A stretch of DNA of 49,990 nt from a virus. The stretch lies in the IMG/VR virus record IMGVR_UViG_3300009609_000007; one strand, given 5' to 3'. Numbering within the stretch: position 1 is the stretch's first letter; each line of letters opens with the position of its first letter. The translations under genes and the position numbers were made by a program. Shown in pieces: positions 3,268-41,917 of the stretch. The notes beneath the pieces are model-generated. The model was not told the DNA's origin. It saw only the letters and a program-made list of their open reading frames with translations, and did not search any database.

Positions 3268-5223
3268 ATGGCATATCGATTTACCATAGACGGAAGCATA
3301 GTTAATGAAGTCGGCAACATTGTCGGTTGGGAAGGGATTGTGTCTACATTGGAACGCGATGCGAGCACGTTGAAAGGATTGTTAGTTTCATTAGATGTCA
3401 CGTTGACTTTTGTTGGTGACATGTACCGTTATTTTTATAATAAATTTTATGGCACCGGAATCTGCGATGAGACGGATATTGTTATTGAATGGATTGAACC
3501 TGACGGAGTTGTGATTACAAGAATTTTTCAGGGCAAGATTTTAAACGCTTCAATAAAATTAAGTGAATTACACGGAGAGGCAAAGTGCAAATTAATAGAC
3601 GATTCTTTTTATGCCAGGATAAATAATAACAAATCCATATCCACGGTCCCCAATGCGGGCAGGTCAAAGAACGATATTTCGATAACTAAGGCGCCGGTGT
3701 ATCATGTAGATATGTTTAGGTGCGATACCGGGGCATTTGTTGACGAAGCGCCTTCGTTTTTCTTGTATGATGTATTTCGTTATTTAGTAGATTTTATGAG
3801 TGACGGAGAAGTTGGGTTTGCAAGTAATTTTCTTCTCAACGATTTACAAATTATGGTCACCAACGGTTATGCTATACGAACAGGCGGCCTATCAACGCCA
3901 AATTGGGCAACTTCGTTTGAGCGTATGTTTAAAAACCTTTATCGTACCCGTAAATGCAGTTTCGCAATCGAGTACGATATAAACTACAAACCAATTTTAA
4001 GAATAGAGGAAGACGCTTATTGGTACAGCACTACCCAGGTAATGACATTTACAGACCCGATAGCCTTTATTGCCTCAATAAAAGAAACGGAATTATACGG
4101 CAAGGTTAAATTCGGGAGTCAAACCATCGCAGACTTCACTTACCTGTCATGGTTAGAGAATGTTCGTTTTAATGGTTTTAAGGAGGAAGAAATGCACATT
4201 TTGGGTCAATGTAATATAGACAACACGTTAGACCTTGTTCGAGATGTTGTATTGAGCAGCAATGTAATCGAGGACAGTTTAGTTCAAAACAATCCGGATT
4301 GGGACGATGAATTGTGTTGGATAGAAGTTGAGAATCTAAATATCGGAGCATTGACCGCCGATGCCAAAATGTCTAACCCATACGGAGCCACGCCACCGCA
4401 GTTTTATAACATGGGCTTAATAAATTCCAAAAGTGCATTGAGCCACTTCGCTACATTCCAAGGCTCCATTGCAAGTTTTATAAATATTTTGAGCAATGAT
4501 TTTCAGGGTAACATAACCGCGTCCAAGCAATGGTCGGATATTACAGTACCGCCTATTCCGCTGGGTGGCACACCACTTGCCTTTGACCCTCTTGTTTATA
4601 ATACTGAAATAGACTTCGGAGGAAACTTTGATTTGGCGACATATACCTGTCCTGAAGTCGGCTTCTATACATTTGGATTCACGGTCAGGTATAACGTGTC
4701 GGGTTTATACAGCGGAATTAATTCAATGGAGGTTTGGTTTATTATAGATAACTTTCTCGGTCAACCGGCAATACAGCTTTATAACGTCCACAATACTTCG
4801 CTACCATTAGGGAATGGTAATTTTGTATTTACTATGTCAGGTCAATTTTACGCACCTGCGCCAGGCGCTCTTGTTCGGTCAATACTTCAATTAAGATTAA
4901 CAGGCACCTTTACACAACCTGTCCACCAAATATTTACGTTGAAGCCCGATACAAGATTTTTTGCATTTCAGACACCAACCTCCGGAGGTCTTTATGCTGA
5001 TTATGACCCAGCAGATGTAAAGCTGGTTCAAATGCAATTAGATTATCCATTAACTTTGCAGGAGTTCCAAACCATCAAAAATAACACTCGCGGATTGTAC
5101 GCTGTTGCTTTAACTCAAGCAAGAAACAGGTTATACAAAGGATGGATTGACAAAATCAAATACAATCACAAAGAGCAGATGGCAAACATAATTCTAAAAT
5201 CATCATTCAATGTCGCTGATTAA
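3268..5223 (+). CDS. Large tail/baseplate protein (function unknown)
   Basis: ATG at 3268, 1 nt after the upstream stop. 651-aa ORF within the tail module. Confidence 0.4.
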   Translation: MAYRFTIDGSIVNEVGNIVGWEGIVSTLERDASTLKGLLVSLDVTLTFVGDMYRYFYNKFYGTGICDETDIVIEWIEPDGVVITRIFQGKILNASIKLSELHGEAKCKLIDDSFYARINNNKSISTVPNAGRSKNDISITKAPVYHVDMFRCDTGAFVDEAPSFFLYDVFRYLVDFMSDGEVGFASNFLLNDLQIMVTNGYAIRTGGLSTPNWATSFERMFKNLYRTRKCSFAIEYDINYKPILRIEEDAYWYSTTQVMTFTDPIAFIASIKETELYGKVKFGSQTIADFTYLSWLENVRFNGFKEEEMHILGQCNIDNTLDLVRDVVLSSNVIEDSLVQNNPDWDDELCWIEVENLNIGALTADAKMSNPYGATPPQFYNMGLINSKSALSHFATFQGSIASFINILSNDFQGNITASKQWSDITVPPIPLGGTPLAFDPLVYNTEIDFGGNFDLATYTCPEVGFYTFGFTVRYNVSGLYSGINSMEVWFIIDNFLGQPAIQLYNVHNTSLPLGNGNFVFTMSGQFYAPAPGALVRSILQLRLTGTFTQPVHQIFTLKPDTRFFAFQTPTSGGLYADYDPADVKLVQMQLDYPLTLQEFQTIKNNTRGLYAVALTQARNRLYKGWIDKIKYNHKEQMANIILKSSFNVAD

Positions 5224-7627
5224 TATACCATATCAACCCTTAGGATTTACGCCTAACAAAAGACCAACCTCAGAGGACTGCGGATGTGATGAGCGTACAT
5301 ATTGCGCGATGGCTCAACCGGACGACCCTTTGTGTATGCAATTTAAGCAAACGCCTTGCGAGCCAAGTATTGCTTGTGATGGAAATTTTCTTGCTATTGA
5401 ATCCGACCAGGAATCTATTGTCGACCCCGAGTTTGATGATGCGGGCGGTAATTTTATTAGTAACTCAGATTTCGGCAATACTTCTTTTTGGGTCACACAA
5501 CCTTCGTGGTCTATTGCTGCTGGCGTGGCAACTAAGGTTGCTTCGGCTGGTGATGAAACGATGACGCAAACAATAACGCCCACGGTTGTCAATGCAATGT
5601 ATAAGATTATCTTTACGATAAGCAATTATGTGGCGGGCGCCATGAGGGTGAAATTTGTTTCGGGTTCGCAGCAACAATTTAGCTCTTTAATATCGGGCAA
5701 CGGAACCTATACTGTTTATTTAAAATCAACACGAAGCTCGGACAATGTTGGCGTTGCCTATACGACATTTTCAATTATCGGCAACGCTGCTTTCGCTGCT
5801 GACATCGACAATGTAACCTGCCAACGTATGGCAATCACGTGGAATTTCGGAGCATATTCAAGTCTTTATGGTTCTTGGCGATTAAATGAAACTTCGGGTT
5901 GGGCGGAGGCATTCGGAGGCGCGATATCTAATGGCGTTATGGCACAGATAGGCGGAGTGGTGCCAAATTCAAGCTATAATTTAAAAGTTACTTTCGAAGC
6001 CAGCGCCGACGGTGACATTCAATTCAATGTAGGCGGTTCGTTGATAGCAATAAATGTCTTTGGTGCGAGCACGCAAAACATCCTAATAACCTCTGGAGCG
6101 GGAACGGATTTCTCAATGAAAGGAATAACTGTCAACGGATTTGTTGGAGAGATTAGCGAAGTGAAATTAATTTTATTACAAACAGACTGCTGGACATTTG
6201 ACGCTGATGAATGGACAATAGGTATTTCTTCACTATGCAAAATTCCTGGTGTTGCGGATACATTAACTAATTCCATTCAGTTAGATGCCGGAGAATTATA
6301 TCAAATAGAATTCACTATCTCGGGCAGAGGTATCGGAAAGATAACAGCGATAGTTGACGGCATACCTCTGGTCGAGGCAGACGAAAACAAGACCTATAAA
6401 ATATTCACTACGCCAACAAATAACAGCCTATTGTCTTTTTATGCTGATGCTGACTTTGACGGATGCATCAGCGGAGTTTATATTTATTTGCTCAAGCAAG
6501 ATTATAAAATCGAACTTCGTAATTCCGATGGAGATTTTATTCTTGATTTGCCTTCCAGTGCATTTAATTACTTCGAGGACTTTGTAACCGTATGCTTTCG
6601 TTTCGAGACACTTCGTGATGAGTTTGATGAGAAGGTGCCTTACGGATGTTACCAACTTTATGTTTATGATTTTTGCGCCATTCAATTTCAAGAAATTATT
6701 ACAGACGGAGAGTTTGTAAATATTCTTGGAGCGTATTGGGTTCAGTTCATAACCGATATTAATTTATATATCAGTATCGTAGCAGAAGAATTAACTGCCG
6801 AAAATGTAGCTGCGTCAACATCCACTATTGATTTAAAAAATTATTGGAACGGAAGTTCAAACGACATCAACAATCCATTGCAAGTTCCTGAAGGTCCTCA
6901 TAACTATAAAATCGAATACGATGTAATATCTAACGCAGACCCGGCTAATATAATTATGGAAGTATTGTTAGGAATGACAGTCGGTGCGGTAAGTTATCCC
7001 GCAACCGTAGGGCATCACATCGTGTTTTTGAATGATGCGGCACCAGACCCAATGTCAGACCCTCCGCCTCAATACTTTGGGGTACGGTTTAAATTCAATT
7101 CAAGTGTTGTTGGCAAAATAGTTGTAGATAATATATCTGTGAAACGGGTAGAACCCTTTGAAGCTGCCTTTATTTCGAGATGTATAAGATACAAAGAATC
7201 TTTTCCATGTACTTCATTTATAACGGCAACGAATACGGATGACGCTTTTGGATTCAATTTCTTTGACACCGGATTCGCATTGCAGCAACGGCTACCGGTC
7301 AAGGGAATCAATCCAACTTATCCGCAAGACTCCAGCGATTATTTATTTAGCGAAGGAAGCAAGCGTAAAAACTTCAGCCAGTCAGAAAAAGTTTGGATAC
7401 TTGTTATTGCAGAGGTGCCAGAATGGTTACATGACGCCATACGGTTAATGAGAGCGTCACAGACGTTCCGTATAGGCGAACCCAGCACTAACACCTTTAC
7501 GGATTACTTCTGCCCGCAGGGCGATTACATACCAGAGTGGAAGAAGACAGGCCAATTAGATTTAGCCGCTGTAAGATTTGAAATTCAATTAGCAGATACC
7601 GATGTTAAATTTATGAGAAACATCTAA
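5210..7627 (+). CDS. Tail fibre / receptor-binding protein with three similar jelly-roll-like segments
   Basis: 805-aa ORF. Three segments share a W...Y.I.F(T/E)(I/A)S...G pattern (FWVTQPSW...YKIIFTISNY; WRLNETSGW...YNLKVTFEAS; WTIGISS...YQIEFTISGR). Cys-rich N-terminus. Confidence 0.45.
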   Translation: MSLINIPYQPLGFTPNKRPTSEDCGCDERTYCAMAQPDDPLCMQFKQTPCEPSIACDGNFLAIESDQESIVDPEFDDAGGNFISNSDFGNTSFWVTQPSWSIAAGVATKVASAGDETMTQTITPTVVNAMYKIIFTISNYVAGAMRVKFVSGSQQQFSSLISGNGTYTVYLKSTRSSDNVGVAYTTFSIIGNAAFAADIDNVTCQRMAITWNFGAYSSLYGSWRLNETSGWAEAFGGAISNGVMAQIGGVVPNSSYNLKVTFEASADGDIQFNVGGSLIAINVFGASTQNILITSGAGTDFSMKGITVNGFVGEISEVKLILLQTDCWTFDADEWTIGISSLCKIPGVADTLTNSIQLDAGELYQIEFTISGRGIGKITAIVDGIPLVEADENKTYKIFTTPTNNSLLSFYADADFDGCISGVYIYLLKQDYKIELRNSDGDFILDLPSSAFNYFEDFVTVCFRFETLRDEFDEKVPYGCYQLYVYDFCAIQFQEIITDGEFVNILGAYWVQFITDINLYISIVAEELTAENVAASTSTIDLKNYWNGSSNDINNPLQVPEGPHNYKIEYDVISNADPANIIMEVLLGMTVGAVSYPATVGHHIVFLNDAAPDPMSDPPPQYFGVRFKFNSSVVGKIVVDNISVKRVEPFEAAFISRCIRYKESFPCTSFITATNTDDAFGFNFFDTGFALQQRLPVKGINPTYPQDSSDYLFSEGSKRKNFSQSEKVWILVIAEVPEWLHDAIRLMRASQTFRIGEPSTNTFTDYFCPQGDYIPEWKKTGQLDLAAVRFEIQLADTDVKFMRNI

Positions 7628-36047: not shown

Positions 36048-36516
36048 ACAAGAAAAGCAAGTTGGGTTCGAAACAATACTATCTAACCCTGCGCCTATAT
36101 GCTTAAGAGCCCTTGTAAATACCGTAGGCAAGAGAGAACTCGTTACGGCATTCAAGAAAATGTTCGATACGTTTTATCAAATTATTTGCAGGAAAGACGA
36201 TATTAACGATGAGTCGCTCGCTGTATTTTGTTTTGAATTTATTTCAGATAATCCACATTATCAGATACAGGATGTTTATAATTTCTTTAAATTTGTTAAA
36301 CAAAATTCAGGAGATAAGAAATACAAATTCGGCAAGATGGATTATCTTAAACTTAAAGAATTTCAAATAGACTATGATGCAGAAAGAGTATCGCATCTTG
36401 AGCGGCGCCATCAAAGATTAAAACAGGATTCCTTGCTCGGAGAAAACGTGCGTCAAGGCCAGCACCCATATAGCATTCAAGACCTAAAATCAAAACTAAC
36501 ACCATGGCAAAAATAA
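36004..36516 (+). CDS. Hypothetical protein (start uncertain: 35944 or 36004)
   Basis: The track ORF starts at a TTG at 35926 and overlaps the previous gene. In-frame ATGs at 35944 and 36004. Confidence 0.3.
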   Translation: MLQLISYSKPLEIIEQEKQVGFETILSNPAPICLRALVNTVGKRELVTAFKKMFDTFYQIICRKDDINDESLAVFCFEFISDNPHYQIQDVYNFFKFVKQNSGDKKYKFGKMDYLKLKEFQIDYDAERVSHLERRHQRLKQDSLLGENVRQGQHPYSIQDLKSKLTPWQK

Positions 36517-36767
36517 AACATTTGTGGTTTAAGCAGCTGATGAATATGAACCGAATAACGGAAACAAAATTAGCTCTTCGCCTGGGCTATCGCCAGCGGC
36601 AATCTGTAGATAAATTTATCGAAGACCCAAAAAAATTATCGTACGCACAAATCGAAATCTGTCTTAAATTATTTAAAATCACCAAAGAGCAATTTGATAA
36701 CTTTATATCAGGAAAAGAAGTAATGTTTAAGAGGCAAAATATTTATCAAAGGAAAAAGACGGCATAA
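36504..36767 (+). CDS. HTH DNA-binding protein
   Basis: NRITETKLALRLGYRQRQSVDKFI is helix-turn-helix-like. Its TAA stop lies inside the GCATAAC core of palindrome a. Confidence 0.4.
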   Translation: MAKIKHLWFKQLMNMNRITETKLALRLGYRQRQSVDKFIEDPKKLSYAQIEICLKLFKITKEQFDNFISGKEVMFKRQNIYQRKKTA

Positions 36768-36907
36768 CGCACTGGGATTAAGGAAGTAAATAAAAAAAGA
36801 TTAGATGATACACTGTTTGATTAACCGAAAATATTTATTAGATGCACGACTGCCCGAAGTTGCAGAACTGCTTTTTTTATTTATTTCCTTTAATCTAATG
36901 TTATGCG
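36762..36907. repeat. Long imperfect palindromic element a (GCATAAC ... GTTATGC)
   Basis: Arms 36763-36799 and 36871-36907 pair over about 30 of 37 nt (exact taaataaaaaaag/ctttttttattta). 71-nt centre. Confidence 0.8.
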
Positions 36908-37010
36908 TTCGTGCCATTCACGGAAGTTCATACGAAGCACTAAACCTTTTTCATTTTCTTTTTTGTGGGAGGGGTTTTAATTTAATCATTCATCAATAAA
37001 TAATCATACA

Positions 37011-37430
37011 ATGGACTTAGAAACAGAAATGAACAACAAAATAATTGCTGAATTTATCGGCAGCAAACTTATTAAATGCGATGATTTGACAATGGGATAT
37101 GAATTGCCAAATGGATTTCCGATTTATTACAAATACTATGAACCAGCAGCATTGAAATTTCATTCGCATTGGGAGTGGATTATGCCTGTGGTTGAATACA
37201 TTGAAAACGGATTGCCTAACAACGAAAAGTTTAAATTTAAAATTGCATTGAATGGCATATCTATTGAAAATTTATCTAATCATCCGTTTGACACAAGAAA
37301 GATTTGTCCTGTGAATTTAATATCACTCGTTTCAAAAATGGATGGGATTTACTCTGCAATAATTCATTTCATTCAATGGCACAATCAATTCGGTGGGGAG
37401 GAAAAAAAAGAAAATGAAAAAGTGGATTAG
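37011..37430 (+). CDS. Hypothetical cassette ORF
   Basis: 139-aa ORF flanked by palindromes a and b. Confidence 0.35.
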   Translation: MDLETEMNNKIIAEFIGSKLIKCDDLTMGYELPNGFPIYYKYYEPAALKFHSHWEWIMPVVEYIENGLPNNEKFKFKIALNGISIENLSNHPFDTRKICPVNLISLVSKMDGIYSAIIHFIQWHNQFGGEEKKENEKVD

Positions 37431-37463
37431 CACAAAAGTTACTACGAAGCACGGAGGCATGAC

Positions 37464-37614
37464 GCATAACGCATCGGAGATTAAAGAAGTAAGAAAATGA
37501 AAGGGTTAAAAGCGACACTGTTTATGATAGCAGAAAAGTTAATTAGAAGTAGAAATGTTCGGACTTGCACAAAGCCCTTTCATTTTATTATTTCTTTTAA
37601 TCTTCCTGTTATAT
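37464..37614. repeat. Long imperfect palindromic element b (GCATAAC ... GTTATAT)
   Basis: Left arm gcataacgcatcggagattaaagaagtaagaaaatgaaaggg pairs with 37575-37614 (about 35/42). The left arm is homologous to those of a, c and e. Confidence 0.8.
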
Positions 37615-37665
37615 TCCAGTTCGTTTTTTCAATTTAAAAATAATTCACAAACAAATATAAATAAA

Positions 37666-37941
37666 ATGGAAAATTCAAAACAACCAATCTATCCCTGCAT
37701 AATGCAACAAGTAGGAGATAATGATTACAGATTGCATAGAGATAGTGATGCAAGAGAACACCGAATACCTATGATGGGATTGACAAAGAGAGAACATTTT
37801 GCATCAATAGCAATGCAGGGTTTGTTAGCTGGACACGCAATAGATGAAAAGTTTTCATCAGGAGTAGATACGGTTGCAAAATTTGCAATAGAATATGCAG
37901 ATGAATTACTGAAACAACTTGCAGAGGGCAAAACCTCTTAA
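37666..37941 (+). CDS. Hypothetical cassette ORF
   Basis: ATG at 37666. The track extension from 37555 runs through the right arm of palindrome b. Confidence 0.35.
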   Translation: MENSKQPIYPCIMQQVGDNDYRLHRDSDAREHRIPMMGLTKREHFASIAMQGLLAGHAIDEKFSSGVDTVAKFAIEYADELLKQLAEGKTS

Positions 37942-37966
37942 TTTTTAAATTGAAAAAACGAATTGA

Positions 37967-38069
37967 AGATAACGAAATGGGATTAAAGAAGTTGAAAGGG
38001 CTTGCACAAATGTTTGTGTTTAGTAGGATGCTCGTAGCCCTTTCAATTTCTTTTAATCTGGTGTTATCT
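37967..38069. repeat. Imperfect palindromic element c (AGATAAC ... GTTATCT)
   Basis: agataacgaaatgggattaaagaagttgaaagggc pairs with gccctttcaatttcttttaatctggtgttatct. 35-nt centre. Confidence 0.8.
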
Positions 38070-38148
38070 GCTGTTTTTTCTTAAATTTTTGTGCGGTGGG
38101 GTTGTTTTTTCTCTTTCATTATTAAGAACTTACAAAAATAGTTGAAAA

Positions 38149-38184
38149 TACATTTGCAGGATTGAAACTAATGTGTTACATTTG
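38149..38184 (+). promoter_or_regulatory. Tandem -7 boxes inside a direct repeat (TACATTTGCAG x2)
   Basis: tacatttgcag at 38149 and 38177, 28 nt apart, upstream of the ATG at 38223. Confidence 0.5.
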
Positions 38185-38222
38185 CAGTATAAAGTAATAC
38201 AAACAATTTTAAAATAAAAGTT

Positions 38223-38636
38223 ATGAGAAATTTCACAACAGAAGATTTTAGCGGAGCAGGACAATATCTTGTTCGCAATGACAAAGAACGAAACAAGTTC
38301 GTTGATACAGGATTTCTTTCAACTATAATGAAGAAGATTGGATATTGTCTTGGACAGGGTTGTGCTGACCGACCAAAAACAGGTAATGTAATGACACTTG
38401 TTGATATGTCTGACGGGATGACATCGCTTGGTTATTTTGACCAAAGGAAAGACCCTGAATACAAGAACAACCCAAGAACTTGTAACACTCATTTATGGGA
38501 GTGGGTTCAATTCAACGGAACGCAAGTGTTATGCGATTACCTGAACAACCCTGATTTGTGTTTGCAAGAATACAGGTTTGCAACCCAAGAAGAAGTTACG
38601 AGAGTTGTAATGTATCAAAGTAGCAGATGGAGATAA
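38223..38636 (+). CDS. Hypothetical protein, first gene of a two-gene unit with an RHH protein
   Basis: 137-aa ORF with its own promoter boxes. Confidence 0.35.
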   Translation: MRNFTTEDFSGAGQYLVRNDKERNKFVDTGFLSTIMKKIGYCLGQGCADRPKTGNVMTLVDMSDGMTSLGYFDQRKDPEYKNNPRTCNTHLWEWVQFNGTQVLCDYLNNPDLCLQEYRFATQEEVTRVVMYQSSRWR

Positions 38637-38638
38637 TT

Positions 38639-38809
38639 ATGGCAAACGAAACACTAACTTTCAGACCGAGTAAGGAGAATAAAAACCTCCTTACTCAACT
38701 TGCGGAACTTGCACAGCAGGACAACCGAACATTGAACAATTATATTGAAACTGTTTTACTTTCTCATTTAAAAGAGCGTGGGCAAAAAAGTTTTAAGAAA
38801 AAAAGATGA
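38639..38809 (+). CDS. Ribbon-helix-helix (Arc/CopG-like) DNA-binding protein
   Basis: MANETLTFRPSKENKNLLTQLAELAQQDNRTLNNYIETVLLSHL has a beta-strand then two-helix pattern. ATG 3 nt after the upstream stop. Confidence 0.5.
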   Translation: MANETLTFRPSKENKNLLTQLAELAQQDNRTLNNYIETVLLSHLKERGQKSFKKKR

Positions 38810-38892
38810 TTAAGCACAAATGTTCAATCGAAGCGCAGTCAATTTCTGCTAACGTATCAGGCACTTATGCAGTGCGATTATTAACGACAAAA

Positions 38893-38940
38893 CTTGCTAC
38901 GAAGCACGGTAAAAATGAATTAAAACTTTTAAGGGAGGGA
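38893..38940 (+). repeat. Upstream module A+B (cttgctacgaagcacgg ... aaaacttttaagggagg), copy 1
   Basis: Same two boxes with the same 12-13 nt spacing at 40416-40462. Box A also occurs at 36928, 37438, 39571 and 41006. Confidence 0.7.
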
Positions 38941-38957
38941 TTTTAAAAACAAATATT

Positions 38958-39500
38958 ATGGAAACAGATTACACAGTATCAAAGACAAATGTTGAATGTT
39001 ACAAACTTCGCCACAAAAGCGGAATGTATTGGGCTGACATAACTATTGACAGCAAAGAAAACACTGGACGTATTCAGGTTGCTTCTGATTTTGGAAGCTG
39101 GCAATACTATTGGGGTGCTTGTGGTTGCCCGTTCAAAGAATTTCTAATGCAGATAGGAATTGATTACGCTGCTTCCAAATTCGGAGAAAGCCAATGGTTT
39201 GACTTTGATGAAACAATTAAATCCTATAAGCAGGGAATTATCGAATTGAGAAGGTACGAACATTTTACCGCTGAACACGCAAGGGAAATATACGATGAGA
39301 TAAAAGAACTGGCAGAAGAAAGTTCATATCACCTGAACGATTTTCAAATGCAGATACAAGGCAAAGAAAATTTAATGAAGCACTTTAATTGGTGTCCAGA
39401 TGTAAGGCACGATATATCGCCACAGTTCAAAAAGTTTTGGAAAATGATTTGGGGTGTATTCTTGGAAGAATTGAAGCAGGAAATAAATGTAGCTGTATAA
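38958..39500 (+). CDS. Hypothetical cassette ORF
   Basis: 180-aa ORF preceded by module A+B and followed by module C. Confidence 0.35.
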   Translation: METDYTVSKTNVECYKLRHKSGMYWADITIDSKENTGRIQVASDFGSWQYYWGACGCPFKEFLMQIGIDYAASKFGESQWFDFDETIKSYKQGIIELRRYEHFTAEHAREIYDEIKELAEESSYHLNDFQMQIQGKENLMKHFNWCPDVRHDISPQFKKFWKMIWGVFLEELKQEINVAV

Positions 39501-39507
39501 ACCTTTT

Positions 39508-39587
39508 AAATTTTTGAAAAAAATTACAGAGCGTGGGCAAAAGTTTTAATTCATTTTTACTTCCAGTAAAGTTGCTACGAAGCACCG
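39508..39587 (+). repeat. Downstream module C+A (tttgaaaaaaattacagagcgtgggcaaaagtttt ... gttgctacgaagcac), copy 1
   Basis: About 36/40 identity to 40935-40976. A third partial copy (aaagagcgtgggcaaaaaagtttt, 38771-95) is coding, inside the RHH gene. Confidence 0.7.
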
Positions 39588-39612
39588 AGCTAAGCATTGC
39601 ATTAAGTGCCTT

Positions 39613-39672
39613 GTTATGTTTTCGGTTTGCTTTTCGCAAACTGGAACATAACGAATCGGAGATTTGAGAAGC
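39613..39672. repeat. Compact hairpin GTTATG...CATAAC followed by a solo left-arm homolog (element e)
   Basis: gttatgttttcggtttgc-ttttc-gcaaactggaacataac (39613-52). cataacgaatcggagatttgagaagca is homologous to the left arms of a, b and c. Confidence 0.65.
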
Positions 39673-39710
39673 ATTTTTTGCGGATTATTAACAACTAAAT
39701 ATAAATTGAA

Positions 39711-39956
39711 ATGACAAAAGAAGAAGAATGTTTAAAAGCACTACGCTGCTTATACATAGCAGTAGATTCATCCATAGCAGATGATGTAAAGAGAATTGTA
39801 TTAGAAGCACTAAAGGAAGCAAAAAATGTTTCTTCAAATCTTCCTGTTATGCGAAGTGCTTTTGATGCTGGTTACAACAATGGGTTCAAAGATGCAACAG
39901 GAAGTTCAAAGCCAGAAAGAAAGTTTGAAGAATGGCATCAAAAGCATTTTGCATAA
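39711..39956 (+). CDS. Hypothetical cassette ORF
   Basis: 81 aa. Its TAA stop lies inside a GCATAAC core (39951-57). Confidence 0.3.
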   Translation: MTKEEECLKALRCLYIAVDSSIADDVKRIVLEALKEAKNVSSNLPVMRSAFDAGYNNGFKDATGSSKPERKFEEWHQKHFA

Positions 39957-40025
39957 CGGTTACGCCTTTGCGTTTGTTGGCGATTTAACAGACGAAATTT
40001 AATTAGAAATACAAAACTAAAAAAT

Positions 40026-40295
40026 ATGGAAAATGATAATTTGAAAACGCAAACCGCCAATAACGACAAAGGCGATGTTAGTAGCAGTTTACCTAAACCA
40101 TGCGAACACAAATTCGCTTTTCGTGGGTTGCATGTAGAAGGAAAAGAAACTTACAGCACTTGTGTATCAATGAAAACGCTATATGAAATTTACTTTTGCG
40201 AAAAGTGTTTAGAAACGAAAAGGAAATTTATTGATAGTGGATACTACATGAAAGTGCCAGCGGGGGCAAGCACAAAAGGTTATGGGTTTAGGTAA
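40026..40295 (+). CDS. Small Cys-containing protein (zinc-ribbon-like)
   Basis: CEHKF...CVSM...CEKCLE. Confidence 0.3.
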   Translation: MENDNLKTQTANNDKGDVSSSLPKPCEHKFAFRGLHVEGKETYSTCVSMKTLYEIYFCEKCLETKRKFIDSGYYMKVPAGASTKGYGFR

Positions 40296-40300
40296 ATTGC

Positions 40301-40392
40301 TACTAACGGTTGCGGGTTAATGTCAGTAATTTTTTTACCAAAAATAAAAACAGAAAAAGAAAAAAATTATTGCATTTAACCCGATGTTATAG
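40301..40392. repeat. Imperfect palindromic element g (TACTAAC ... GTTATAG)
   Basis: tactaacggttgcgggttaatg pairs with catttaacccgatgttatag (perfect cgggttaa/ttaacccg). A-rich 56-nt centre. Confidence 0.7.
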
Positions 40393-40415
40393 GCAGTGGG
40401 GATTATCAGCAGAAA

Positions 40416-40462
40416 CTTAAATACGAAGCACAAAAAAAATAATAAAAACTTTTAAGGGAGGC
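40416..40462 (+). repeat. Upstream module A+B, copy 2
   Basis: cttaaatacgaagcac ... aaaacttttaagggaggc, 6 nt before the ATG at 40469. Confidence 0.7.
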
Positions 40463-40468
40463 TTTTTT

Positions 40469-40936
40469 ATGAATAACATTCTACCAGTAATTACACTTTA
40501 TCAACCTTGGGCAACTTGGATAATGAGAGGTTGGAAAACCATTGAAACAAGAACACATAACCGTTTCGCCTGCCTTGAAAACAAAAAGGTATTGATACAC
40601 GCAGGGCAAAGAACGGATGCAGAAGCAATAAAAAATCCATACTTGACTAAAGAACAACTAATGCACGAACCTGACGAAATGATTAACGGTTTCATATTAG
40701 GAAGTGCTTATGTAAATGATTTCAGATTGCTTAATTCAAATGCAGCACAAAGAGCATTGATTGAGTGCGAAACAAAAAGGTATGGTTTATTCCTTGAAAA
40801 AATTGACAGGTGGGAAATTCCGATACCCGAAAAAGGAGAAATGGGAATTTGGTATTACGATATGGATAGTATGATGAAAGTGAAAAAATCACAGATACAA
40901 ACGATTGAAAAGCAGAATGATTTATTTACCATTTAA
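40469..40936 (+). CDS. ASCH (PUA-like) domain protein
   Basis: ITLYQPWATWIMRGWKTIETR matches the ASCH N-terminal signature. Confidence 0.55.
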   Translation: MNNILPVITLYQPWATWIMRGWKTIETRTHNRFACLENKKVLIHAGQRTDAEAIKNPYLTKEQLMHEPDEMINGFILGSAYVNDFRLLNSNAAQRALIECETKRYGLFLEKIDRWEIPIPEKGEMGIWYYDMDSMMKVKKSQIQTIEKQNDLFTI

Positions 40937-41022
40937 AATTTTGAAAAAATTTACAGAGCGTGGGGAAAAGTTTTTATTATTTTTTTTCGTCCGATTACCG
41001 ATGAACTTAAATACGAAGCGAC
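40935..41022 (+). repeat. Downstream module C+A, copy 2
   Basis: aaaattttgaaaaaatttacagagcgtggggaaaagttttt ... cttaaatacgaagcgac. Confidence 0.7.
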
Positions 41023-41074
41023 ACACCCCCATTGCCTATAACGTGTATATTTAAAAAGCAATACTGAAAATCAA

Positions 41075-41917
41075 ATGGATACAGAAATAGAAAAAATACA
41101 TCAGGGCTACATTAATGAGTTGGTAAGGAGAAAATATGCGAGCTCTACTATTACAGCATATTCTTCGAACTTCAATAAATTCCTGTACCATTTCAAGGCG
41201 GATTTTGAAAACATAACCAAGCAGCAAATCTTAGATTGGTTATTGTACCTTGTTGAGAAAGACAAAATTTCGTCAGCATACCAAAACCATTTGATAAATT
41301 CCATCAAATTCTATTATGAACAAATTTTAGGCAGGGCAAAAGAAATTTATGACATCAAACGCCCGAGAAAAGAATTTAAGATTCCGGACTTGCTTACAGA
41401 CGAAGAGTTGCAAAGATTATTTAATGCTTGCACAAATATTAAACACAAGGTTGCTTTATCTCTGTTATACGGTTGCGGATTAAGGCGCTCGGAGGTCATA
41501 CATTTAAAATTAGATTGCATCACAGAAACATATTTAAGAATCGTACAATCAAAAGGCAAGAAAGACCGGTACGTACCATTGCCAGAAAATGTAGCGAACC
41601 TTATAAAACAATATCGCGAAAAATATAATCCAAAAGTATATTTATTTAACGGCCAAAACGGAATATTGCAGTACTCGGCAGAAAGCATGGCGCAATTCTT
41701 AAATAAGTATGCCACAGAAGCAGGAATCACAAAGAACGTTCACTCGCACCTGCTCAGACACAATTTTATCACAGAGCATTGCGAAGACGGAACCAACTCT
41801 ATGGAGCTCATGGAAATCGTTGGTCATAGTTCACCTAAAACATTAAAAAGATATTACCATTTTCGCAGACCAGAAAAACTTCATTTAAAATCTCCTATCA
41901 ATAAAATTAATTTGTAA
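41075..41917 (+). CDS. Tyrosine recombinase, XerC/XerD-like (SAM-like N-domain + catalytic domain)
   Basis: R (GCGLRRSE), K (SKGKKDRYVPL), HxxR (HLLRHNF), H (VGHSS), Y (LKRYYH). 280 aa. Only 58 aa between GKKDR and HLLRH, so no IntI-type insertion. Confidence 0.8.
   Translation: MDTEIEKIHQGYINELVRRKYASSTITAYSSNFNKFLYHFKADFENITKQQILDWLLYLVEKDKISSAYQNHLINSIKFYYEQILGRAKEIYDIKRPRKEFKIPDLLTDEELQRLFNACTNIKHKVALSLLYGCGLRRSEVIHLKLDCITETYLRIVQSKGKKDRYVPLPENVANLIKQYREKYNPKVYLFNGQNGILQYSAESMAQFLNKYATEAGITKNVHSHLLRHNFITEHCEDGTNSMELMEIVGHSSPKTLKRYYHFRRPEKLHLKSPINKINL

Follow-up and report, generated by a model that had tools for sequence, protein, structure and literature searches.

A likely integron-like gene cassette array next to a Xer-like tyrosine recombinase in a tailed phage

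We analysed the 49,990-nucleotide (nt) viral DNA of IMG/VR record IMGVR_UViG_3300009609_000007, hereafter the window, and in particular its region at 36.76-41.92 kb. There, seven cassettes of 305-880 bp (positions 36762-41043), each holding one or two small genes and bounded by 5'-YTAAC^G cores (here and below, a caret marks the mapped junction), lie directly upstream of the gene of a 280-amino-acid (aa) tyrosine recombinase on the same strand. We consider it likely that the region is a phage-borne, integron-like cassette platform. Cassettes are gained and lost precisely at the cores, cassette ends are complementary to each other, the stems of the sites are strand-biased, and arrays of this kind are associated with the recombinase in viruses. 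A preliminary description made from the sequence alone had suggested a cassette-shuffling system, an idea that the cassette-precise variation at the cores supports.

The long open reading frames (ORFs) of the window are all on the + strand, with structural, terminase and replication genes among them. Since identical genes recur on contigs of 49,988-50,008 bp assembled from many soil and sediment metagenomes, the window represents essentially one complete tailed-phage genome of about 50 kb. The host is probably a member of the Bacteroidota, judging from the relatives of the recombinase, the cultured flavophages described below and the TAnnTTTG -7 box of cassette 3.

Gain and loss of cassettes at the cores

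Natural variants of the same phage were found by matching window proteins to public assemblies and then aligning near-identical contigs to the window. Breakpoints had been predicted to fall at the cores, and one core-to-core deletion and two insertions at the recombinase-proximal core do so, all in contigs with flanks 100% identical to the window. In contig L004, the 1104 bp between cores 38850 and 39954 are deleted and cassettes 4 and 5 are gone; the junction reads CTGCTAACG^GTTACGCC, and TAACG alone is shared. Contig L008 carries a 786-bp cassette inserted at core 41039, with ATAACG on both sides (the core is duplicated) and the rest identical; the insert has the anatomy of the window cassettes, namely a core, a palindrome, flanking arms and a 188-aa ORF. 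At the same core, L286, the only contig that came from a metagenome pattern scan, holds two other cassettes (640 bp in total). This core is thus seen in three states (window, L008 and L286), as expected for an acceptor (attI-like) site.

A tblastn search of GenBank phages with the window recombinase led to the integrases of cultured flavobacterial phages, namely Polaribacter phages Freya_1 to Freya_10 (31% identity) and Leef_1 (34%) and Cellulophaga phage Ingeline (30%). The genomes of the ten Freya isolates measure 43,978-48,920 bp and have flanks 99.7-100% identical; every length difference lies directly upstream of the integrase gene, and the isolates differ by cassettes only. Four cassette sites, A to D, and one acceptor site (Table 1) account for the states observed: A, B, C or D joined to attI, B joined to C, and C followed by a novel 472-bp cassette and attI. 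All seven Freya junctions (7/7) fall at ...YAAC^, again as predicted, and the upstream partner is always whole up to AAC. An ...AAC^ACCCCTATAAC junction, about 50 nt ahead of the integrase gene, is common to all the array states. The original description of these phages gives the size range and one integrase only, taken as a hint of a temperate lifestyle, and the words 'cassette', 'indel' and 'variable region' are absent from it (PMC8776804).

The insertions at window core 41036-41043 in L008 and L286 and the common attI junction of Freya both identify the core beside the recombinase gene as the acceptor. Leef_1 has a similar array and acceptor site, and Ingeline at least an acceptor-like site. 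Across the three flavophage genera, acceptor sites just before the integrase gene read GCTAAC^(A/G)CCC(C/A)(T/C)ATA... (L287, 6925-6960; L288, 6925-6965; Freya_10, L115, ~4097-4120), and a conserved flavophage acceptor motif may therefore exist; the window has ACACCCCC...CCTATAACG^ instead.

Ten of the 11 mapped junctions lie exactly at AAC/TAACG, with 3-7 nt shared, which places the crossover within the AAC/GTT triplet (TAACG or ...AAC^) at a resolution short of the individual phosphodiester bond. The AAC junctions keep the upstream repeat whole up to AAC.

Several contigs end in or at the array: L025 at 36771, L023 near 39627, L008 at 40967 and L021 near 41147. The end of L025, 4 nt past the 87-aa backbone gene, is consistent with an assembly break at the start of the variable array, and one of these contigs of ~45-50 kb is ~4.4 kb shorter than the genome, about the length of the array. 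Such breaks suggest that mixed array states occur within single samples. A look-up of the 155-aa ORF protein (ORF155) revealed no new array states among the 23 longest contigs.

Folding of the sites, the recombinase and the distribution of the arrays

The four long palindromes (a, b, c and g), the compact hairpin at 39613-39652 and the cores listed in the preliminary description are all present. Folded as single-stranded DNA (ssDNA) and compared with 200 dinucleotide shuffles, the palindromes and the compact hairpin reach z scores of -3.6 to -6.8, and none of the 200 shuffles folds as well. The reported homology between the left arms of a, b, c and e corresponds to genuine repeat families, and the TAA stop codons of the upstream ORFs do lie inside the cores at 36765-67 and 39954-56. 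Other parts of that description needed correction. Core GCTAACG at 38847-38854 had been overlooked. Only 41036 is a truly solo core, while 39646 and 39951, also described as solo, have GTTA partners within downstream ORFs (39836-39860 and 40077-40083). The compact hairpin is in fact the closed end of the end-to-end pairing of cassette 4, and eight rather than nine small ORFs are credible.

Judged on boxes and folding, the sites are of attC type: YTAAC...GTTAR boxes close stems of 46-215 nt. From the base of the palindrome, the AAC/GTT box is followed by 4-7 unpaired nt after AAC and then by the long stem, and this asymmetric unpaired stretch is conserved across sites.

Beyond the palindromes, each ORF of the window array is flanked by an inverted repeat made of the two ends of its own cassette. 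The final 15-60 nt of a cassette, which run up to the next core, pair with the stretch that immediately follows the GTTA of its own palindrome. Over 19 cassettes, the duplex between the 3' tail and the cassette's own head averages -23.9 kcal/mol, versus -14.0 (sd 2.8) with other heads and -14.4 with the next cassette in the array; with 28 cassettes, the observed mean energy was not attained in any of 100,000 permutations. In IMG/VR arrays (144 pairs), the 10 nt after the GTT of one site and the 10 nt before the next detected core are complementary at 8/10 positions or more in 35% of cases, against 1.9% for the same site in the array context and 1.0% for other cores. When tail and head are folded together, as they would adjoin in an excised circle, they give a single uninterrupted rod composed of the extension stem, the YTAAC:GTTAR box, the 4-7 unpaired nt after AAC, the long stem and a variable loop. 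Because its ends are complementary, an excised circle would thus fold into a single long rod with the crossover inside. In some cassettes (window cassette 4 and Freya cassette 4929-6093), the extension is closed by a small loop and the ORF sits in the other loop, which explains the 'GTTAT...ATAAC' hairpins. The paired arms of cassettes 5 and 6 lie inside coding sequence, so the pairing is kept against coding constraints. Classical integrons follow a similar logic of end complementarity, over about 4 nt only.

The stems are biased between strands. In 209 sites detected by Watson-Crick pairing only, mismatches inside the 18-bp stems are G·T rather than A·C on the + strand (334 vs 46, about 7:1), and the + strand fold is the more stable in 4/4 palindromes and 27/28 circle junctions. 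On this strand the exchanged AAC forms the 5' end of the hairpin, the same geometry as in the recombinogenic bottom strand of attC. Since crossover takes place at the AAC core on the 5' side of each palindrome, read on the coding strand, the cassette ORFs point the opposite way to those of classical integron cassettes. The attC crossover is 5'-G^TTRRRY-3', and attC bottom strands are the more active ones (PMC9892861).

The recombinase combines Phage_int_SAM_4 and Phage_integrase domains, and its catalytic residues R137, K160, H225, R228, H251 and Y260 are all present and invariant across nine relatives. It scores below every NCBIfam cut-off (best, XerA_Arch, 173 bits vs 220; XerD, 124 vs 330; XerC, 119 vs 335) and below those of the IntI models (TIGR02249, 146.5 bits vs 265; PRK15417, 67 vs 435). 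These scores, and the lack of conserved dif-like arms around its cores, set it apart from the Xer equivalogs (XerC/XerD or XerA/XerS/XerH) that act on dif-like sites of ~28 bp, in which a 6-8-bp spacer separates two 11-bp arms. Its closest solved relatives are archaeal XerA (4a8e), which aligns collinearly, and IntI4 (2a3v), of which ~42 residues (176-248), the IntI-specific insertion, remain unmatched. Lacking the defining feature of that family, the enzyme is no integron integrase; model scores and alignment alike agree with its earlier description as Xer-like and devoid of the IntI insertion.

Scanning IMG/VR with the recombinase as a single protein found nothing, and an alignment query was needed. 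Exact-motif scans of IMG/VR returned 2 and 84 loci, mostly chance matches by our estimate; only L031 is related. This different phage of ~56 kb, from the same sample series, encodes a 296-aa recombinase 27-28% identical to that of the window and has TAACG cores and cassettes upstream of it, one encoding a C5 DNA methyltransferase. Homology blocks between L031 and the window start or stop exactly at cores, and the L031 homologue of the cassette 7 ORF sits in different cassette flanks. Two further loci harbour closer recombinases: L111 (48% identical), with nine cores upstream, and L110 (74%), with a core 42 nt before the gene. In the window, L110, L111, L031, Freya and Leef alike, 30-60 nt separate the acceptor core from the recombinase gene that follows, and recombinases only 27-31% identical keep the same layout. 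The cores have the same direct orientation throughout, in the window (8/8) as in the related arrays.

Hairpin density around recombinase genes was compared between 80 viral loci from IMG/VR (recombinase relatives 33-42% identical) and, as a negative control, the best 80 bacterial homologue loci (36-43% identity, almost all in Bacteroidota or other FCB-group genomes). A first scanner based on a 10-bp stem proved unspecific (29 and 25 matches on the two strands) and was replaced by a 14-bp version (NNNAAC, 2-9 nt, a stem of at least 13/14 bp ..., 0-7 nt, GTTNNN), which finds six + strand sites in the window, five of them in the array, and one on the - strand. On the recombinase strand of the viral loci, AAC...GTT hairpins amount to 0.66/kb upstream vs 0.10/kb downstream of the gene, with 0.06-0.17/kb on the other strand. 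Their density peaks within 4 kb upstream, and 34 of the 51 viral loci with at least 3 kb upstream hold at least three sites. The bacterial loci remain at background level (0.07/kb), so the array is a trait of the viral branch of the recombinase family. Four IMG/VR arrays inspected directly display yTAAC^GGTTn cores, a 14-bp stem and T-GTTAr.

Many of the bacterial homologues (L206-L285) are ~370 aa long with an N-terminal extension, and many lie <1 kb from a contig end or are multicopy per chromosome, e.g. three in OY759982.1. Around them, AAC...GTT hairpins are mildly enriched downstream on the opposite strand (0.23/kb vs about 0.06-0.09); these homologues may belong to a different repeated mobile element.

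Proposed mechanism and alternative explanations

In the mechanism we propose, each cassette would bring its own recombination site, the imperfect palindrome. The recombinase would bind either the coding strand in its folded form or the cruciform of a small circle, cleave within AAC and exchange one strand, the partner being the acceptor core or the site of another cassette, and replication would then resolve the junction. Recombination between any two cores would delete the cassettes between them, and the excised cassettes would exist as circles in which the coding strand or a cruciform forms the rod; for window cassettes 4 and 5, the predicted circle junction is ...GCATTTTGCATAACG^TATCAGGCACTTATGC... 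New cassettes would enter at the hairpin-free core beside the recombinase gene (...TAACG^TGTATATTTAAAAAGC). A one-strand exchange resolved by replication operates in integron attC x attI recombination and in the XerCD integration of the CTXphi hairpin. Because the partner sites share only 3-5 nt, such an exchange is likelier here than a two-strand exchange through a homologous overlap. More speculatively, pairing of cassette ends in ssDNA would bring the bounding cores together, perhaps templating precise excision.

Several points weigh against this proposal. Its catalyst, its circular intermediates and its single-stranded substrate are all deduced from sequence patterns: the adjoining recombinase presumably carries out the cassette events, and the excised circles are predicted, none having been seen. 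The + strand being also the transcribed one, its G·T bias cannot tell ssDNA from RNA folding, and bias and asymmetric unpaired stretch fit both equally. One rearrangement departs from the rule that breakpoints fall at cores: L286 also carries a deletion with its junction in the 9-nt ACGAAGCAC repeat, which yields a chimeric cassette arranged like one in L031 and indicates that ordinary recombination among repeated cassette flanks alters the array as well. Lysogeny may be another function of the recombinase, or its only one. Finally, the enzyme lacks the I2 helix, to which PMC7790495 ascribes the shift of integron integrases from recombining double-stranded DNA towards recombining single-stranded DNA.

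The alternative that survives best, although we deem it unlikely, is this: the recombinase would move cassettes by double-stranded, two-strand exchange at short cores, in the style of Xer/dif or pdif, the palindromes being incidental or regulatory. An enzyme closest to XerA and XerC/D-type recombinases, without the IntI I2 insertion, and an acceptor core without a hairpin would fit such a scheme. Yet the partners share only TAACG (window) or AAC (Freya), with no common overlap of 6-8 bp on either side, and the stems covary between cassettes and are strand-biased, neither of which double-stranded sites need. The cores are moreover all direct and served by a single recombinase, unlike those of pdif modules.

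Less probable still is that the stems work as RNA, helping to process, stabilise or attenuate a long early transcript, and that cassette differences arise by homologous or microhomology recombination with no involvement of the recombinase. The G·T (G·U in RNA) bias is indeed on the sense strand, the ORF lies on the G·T-biased strand in 44/50 confirmed cassettes, the L286 deletion has its junction in ACGAAGCAC, and Freya encodes a RecT-type recombination protein. Homology-driven exchange is however difficult to reconcile with junctions so regularly placed at AAC with so few shared nucleotides and an intact upstream repeat, as is a purely RNA role with hairpins confined to the upstream side of the recombinase gene, in the window and across the 80 viral loci, and with pairing that continues across the circle junction up to the crossover nucleotide. 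Nor do the palindromes resemble terminators: they have no T-tracts, and a scan found 3 terminator-like sites vs 3.7 expected, none coinciding with a palindrome, by which intrinsic terminators were ruled out. Alongside recombination, the stems may still play a role at the RNA level.

It is very improbable that the recombinase serves lysogeny only and that host XerC/D or a host integron integrase moves the cassettes of an integrase-less attC cluster ('CALIN') as already reported in phages: IntI1 recombines attC sites taken from virulent phages, one of them a Polaribacter phage (Qi et al. 2023, PMC9892861), and those who isolated Freya saw in its integrase a hint that it may be temperate (PMC8776804), but the arrays are tightly and directionally tied to the recombinase family, as the peak <4 kb upstream and the 34/51 loci with at least three sites indicate, and both the constant acceptor position and the overall layout persist between strongly diverged recombinases. 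Miniature inverted-repeat transposable elements and insertion sequences were dismissed, as inspection revealed neither target duplications nor a transposase and the internal sequences differ.

Beyond the integron-like platform itself, a broader interpretation can be put forward only tentatively. The array may be a second, independently built 'integron', in which folded single strands are the substrate of a Xer-like recombinase that has no I2 helix, viruses rather than cells bank and exchange accessory and counter-defence genes, cassette circles fold into rods with the crossover inside, and end pairing may template excision; such systems would be widespread in Bacteroidota phages and active within a single enrichment culture.

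Array features, cargo and comparison with known systems

The features of the array and the Freya sites are collected in Table 1. Cassette ORFs and recombinase gene are all on one strand, and the divergent integrase/Pc layout of integrons is absent. The doubtful ninth ORF (46 aa, 38806-38946), called in several public annotations, crosses core 38850 into the head of cassette 4; it is probably no real gene, because the L004 deletion would split it. The last core has no hairpin and lies 32 nt before the start codon of the recombinase.

Table 1. Features of the cassette array in the window and recombination sites of the Freya phages. Cassettes start at the first T of the TAACG core; Freya sites refer to Freya_10 coordinates.
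Feature	Position	Strand	Details
Last backbone gene before the array	36504-36767	+	87 aa; TAA stop inside core 1
Cassette 1 (702 bp)	36765-37466	+	core GCATAACG 36762-36769; palindrome a 36762-36907; ORF 37011-37430 (139 aa)
Cassette 1 end pairing	37404-37466 with 36904-36964		3' end with head
Cassette 2 (503 bp)	37467-37969	+	core 37464-37471; palindrome b 37464-37614; ORF 37666-37941 (91 aa)
Cassette 2 end pairing	37902-37969 with 37612-37647		3' end with head; 25-nt arms, 96% complementary
Cassette 3 (880 bp)	37970-38849	+	core 37967-37974; palindrome c 37967-38069
Cassette 3 ORFs	38223-38636; 38639-38809	+	137 aa; 56 aa (weak Arc-like match)
Cassette 3 -7 box	near 38176-38183		Bacteroidota-type, TAnnTTTG
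Cassette 4 (799 bp)	38850-39648	+	core GCTAACG 38847-38854; ORF 38958-39500 (180 aa, Phage_phiTE_072 family)
Cassette 4 closing hairpin	39613-39652		ends in next core; head 38850-38875 pairs with tail 39594-39616
Cassette 4 core	38847-38854		left breakpoint of L004 deletion
Cassette 5 (305 bp)	39649-39953	+	core 39646-39653; ORF 39711-39956 (81 aa)
Cassette 5 long palindrome	39646-39672 (left arm); 39836-39860 (right arm)		encloses start of ORF 39711-39956
Cassette 5 end pairing	39935-39957 with 39846-39868		3' end with head
Cassette 6 (350 bp)	39954-40303	+	core 39951-39958; palindrome 39954-40080 enclosing start of ORF 40026-40295 (89 aa)
Cassette 6 end pairing	40285-40307 with 40077-40099		3' end with head; 23 nt, 96% complementary
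Cassette 6 core	39951-39958		right breakpoint of L004 deletion
Cassette 7 (735 bp)	40304-41038	+	core CTACTAACG 40300-40308; palindrome g 40301-40392; ORF 40469-40936 (155 aa)
Cassette 7 arms	40432-40453; 40966-40987		100% complementary
Recombinase-proximal solo core (attI-like)	41036-41043	+	CTATAACG; first T of TAACG at 41039; entry point of extra cassettes in L008 and L286
Tyrosine recombinase	41075-41917	+	280 aa, Xer/IntI superfamily
ACGAAGCAC repeat	36932-41020	+	copies at 36932, 37444, 38899, 39577 and 40423; variant at 41012
Freya site A			TTTACAAC^GGATATGG
Freya site B			TTGTTTACAAC^GTATTTG
Freya site C			GTTACCAAC^TTACATG
Freya site D			TTTTACCAAC^GTTCTAC
Freya acceptor site			TTGTTGCTAAC^ACCCCTATAAC

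Three motif classes, the ATAACG...GATTAAAGAAG arms, ACGAAGCAC and ACAGAGCGTGGG, are limited to 36.7-41.1 kb of the 50-kb window. Cassettes 1, 4 and 7 each have one (A)ACGAAGCAC copy in the head and another in the tail, equally oriented and preceded by similar bases; the folded rod would set the two copies face to face, unpaired, and the repeat could act as a second site of recombination, as a loop that binds protein or as a transcription signal. G-rich boxes (GTGGGAGGGG, GTGCGGTGGGG, AAGGGAGGG, GAGCGTGGGC, GGGGAGG) stand at the inner end of both ORF-flanking arms, in the window (36965-36975, 37395-37403, 38090-38100, 38774-38783, 38931-38939, 39529-39538, 40454-40461 and 40956-40965) and in L111 (5270-5290, 6320-6335, 6515-6535 and 7440-7455). 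At the base of the rod they occupy both strands without being complementary, and they are not simply ribosome-binding sites, since their spacing to start codons varies from 7 to 40 nt.

A DNA search of GenBank phages found no close relative of the window; the sole match, in a 642-kb uncultured 'megaphage' (LR756502.1, 579849-580005), aligns with window positions 38635-38791 at 81.5% over 157 nt. It spans the small Arc-like ORF and the tail of cassette 3, which hints that this cassette, or its tail, is common to very different phages. Promoter-like sites of sigma-70 type number 20 vs 19.2 expected, in a scan that leaves out Bacteroidota promoter types. Rfam gave zero matches over the whole window at gathering score and chance-level ones only at E up to 10, and neither tRNA nor tmRNA genes were found in the window.

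Five DNA methyltransferases, representing four families, were identified among 70 cassette proteins of these arrays, together with one DUF3850 and one HAD_SAK_2 domain protein; nothing in Pfam matched the others. Orphan methyltransferases recur as cargo (C5, N6_N4, Dam and D12, plus an MT-A70 match in L111), in cassettes of L031 (166-975) and L111 (295-861) and also in IMG/VR cassettes. The proteins of the window cassettes match uncharacterised phage families only, apart from the weak Arc-like match. The orphan methyltransferases are the sole hint of an anti-defence role, and the array probably lets the phage population swap counter-defence and host-interaction genes.

In the current view, integrons rely on a single specialised clade of integrases, in which an additional helix made single-strand recombination possible. 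If our reading is correct, the integron principle can be built in another way, or hairpin-bounded cassettes can be handled without the extra helix. Phages would possess a dedicated mechanism for the fast gain, loss and exchange of small accessory genes, orphan methyltransferases included, and one class of hypervariable region in phages of flavobacteria and other Bacteroidota would thereby be accounted for. For annotation, such integrases would be no proof of a temperate lifestyle, and integron tools based on the IntI domain would miss these arrays or call them integrase-less attC clusters. The system is directly testable, because Freya, with its seven natural array states, is in culture together with its host Polaribacter sp. 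HaHaR_3_91.

A full-text literature search of incomplete coverage returned classical integrons and integrase-less phage attC clusters only (PMC9892861); within that coverage, no account was found of a phage-encoded recombinase outside the IntI clade that is paired with a cassette array, of turnover of cassettes in Freya or of end-to-end complementarity. The phage CALINs are the nearest published likeness, with attC-like sites and small cassettes in tailed phages, including a Polaribacter phage, several of the cassettes encoding DNA methyltransferases (Qi et al. 2023, PMC9892861). Those clusters were detected with IntegronFinder and classical IntI, read as integrase-less and tested with bacterial IntI1, and neither a phage-encoded non-IntI partner, natural cassette turnover between isolates nor end-to-end complementarity was described (PMC9892861).

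The pdif modules of Acinetobacter resemble the phage array in that short Xer-type sites bound small accessory-gene modules mobile between replicons. They rely, however, on 28-bp XerC-spacer-XerD sites of alternating orientation and on host XerC/D, whereas the phage array has 3-5 conserved nt, direct cores, hairpin sites and one dedicated adjoining recombinase; site orientation (all direct, with no alternation) and site form led us to reject this assignment. Similarly, the T4 PeSL cassettes are small early-region phage ORFs flanked by stem-loop repeats and variable between relatives, but their shuffling is attributed to homologous recombination of promoter/stem-loop repeats, without a recombinase. 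In the phage array, by contrast, junctions are nucleotide-precise at AAC beside a recombinase, and sigma-70-type promoters are not enriched.

For the chemistry, a precedent exists: XerCD reportedly integrates CTXphi-type elements (integrative mobile elements exploiting Xer, IMEX) via a folded ssDNA hairpin, in work attributed to Val et al. in 2005 and Das et al. in 2010. This hairpin mimics a duplex core site with a mismatched centre, and the Xer enzymes involved have no I2 helix, so the proposed chemistry is possible for a Xer-like enzyme. The CTXphi system nevertheless differs in using host XerC and XerD and a single chromosomal dif target, and in integrating a whole ssDNA phage genome, with no gene cassettes, array or element-encoded recombinase.

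The closest parallel remains the integron. In both, a tyrosine recombinase stands beside an acceptor site, the cassettes are small, promoter-poor and each equipped with an imperfect ...AAC / GTT... palindrome, the crossover falls in the AAC/GTT triplet at the 5' end of the folding strand, and the site nearest the recombinase takes up new cassettes; the initial bases of a cassette agree with the far end of the site it carries itself and not with that of its neighbour, and the order read on the minus strand is recombinase, attI, cassettes. A classical integron was ruled out by the sub-cut-off IntI scores and the missing I2 insertion. The phage array further differs in that its cassette ORFs are co-directional with the recombinase and hence inverted, its cassette ends are complementary over 15-60 nt rather than about 4 nt, its sites have an asymmetric unpaired region by the R box (4-7 nt vs 0-4 nt), and the platform resides in a lytic or temperate tailed phage of probable Bacteroidota hosts.

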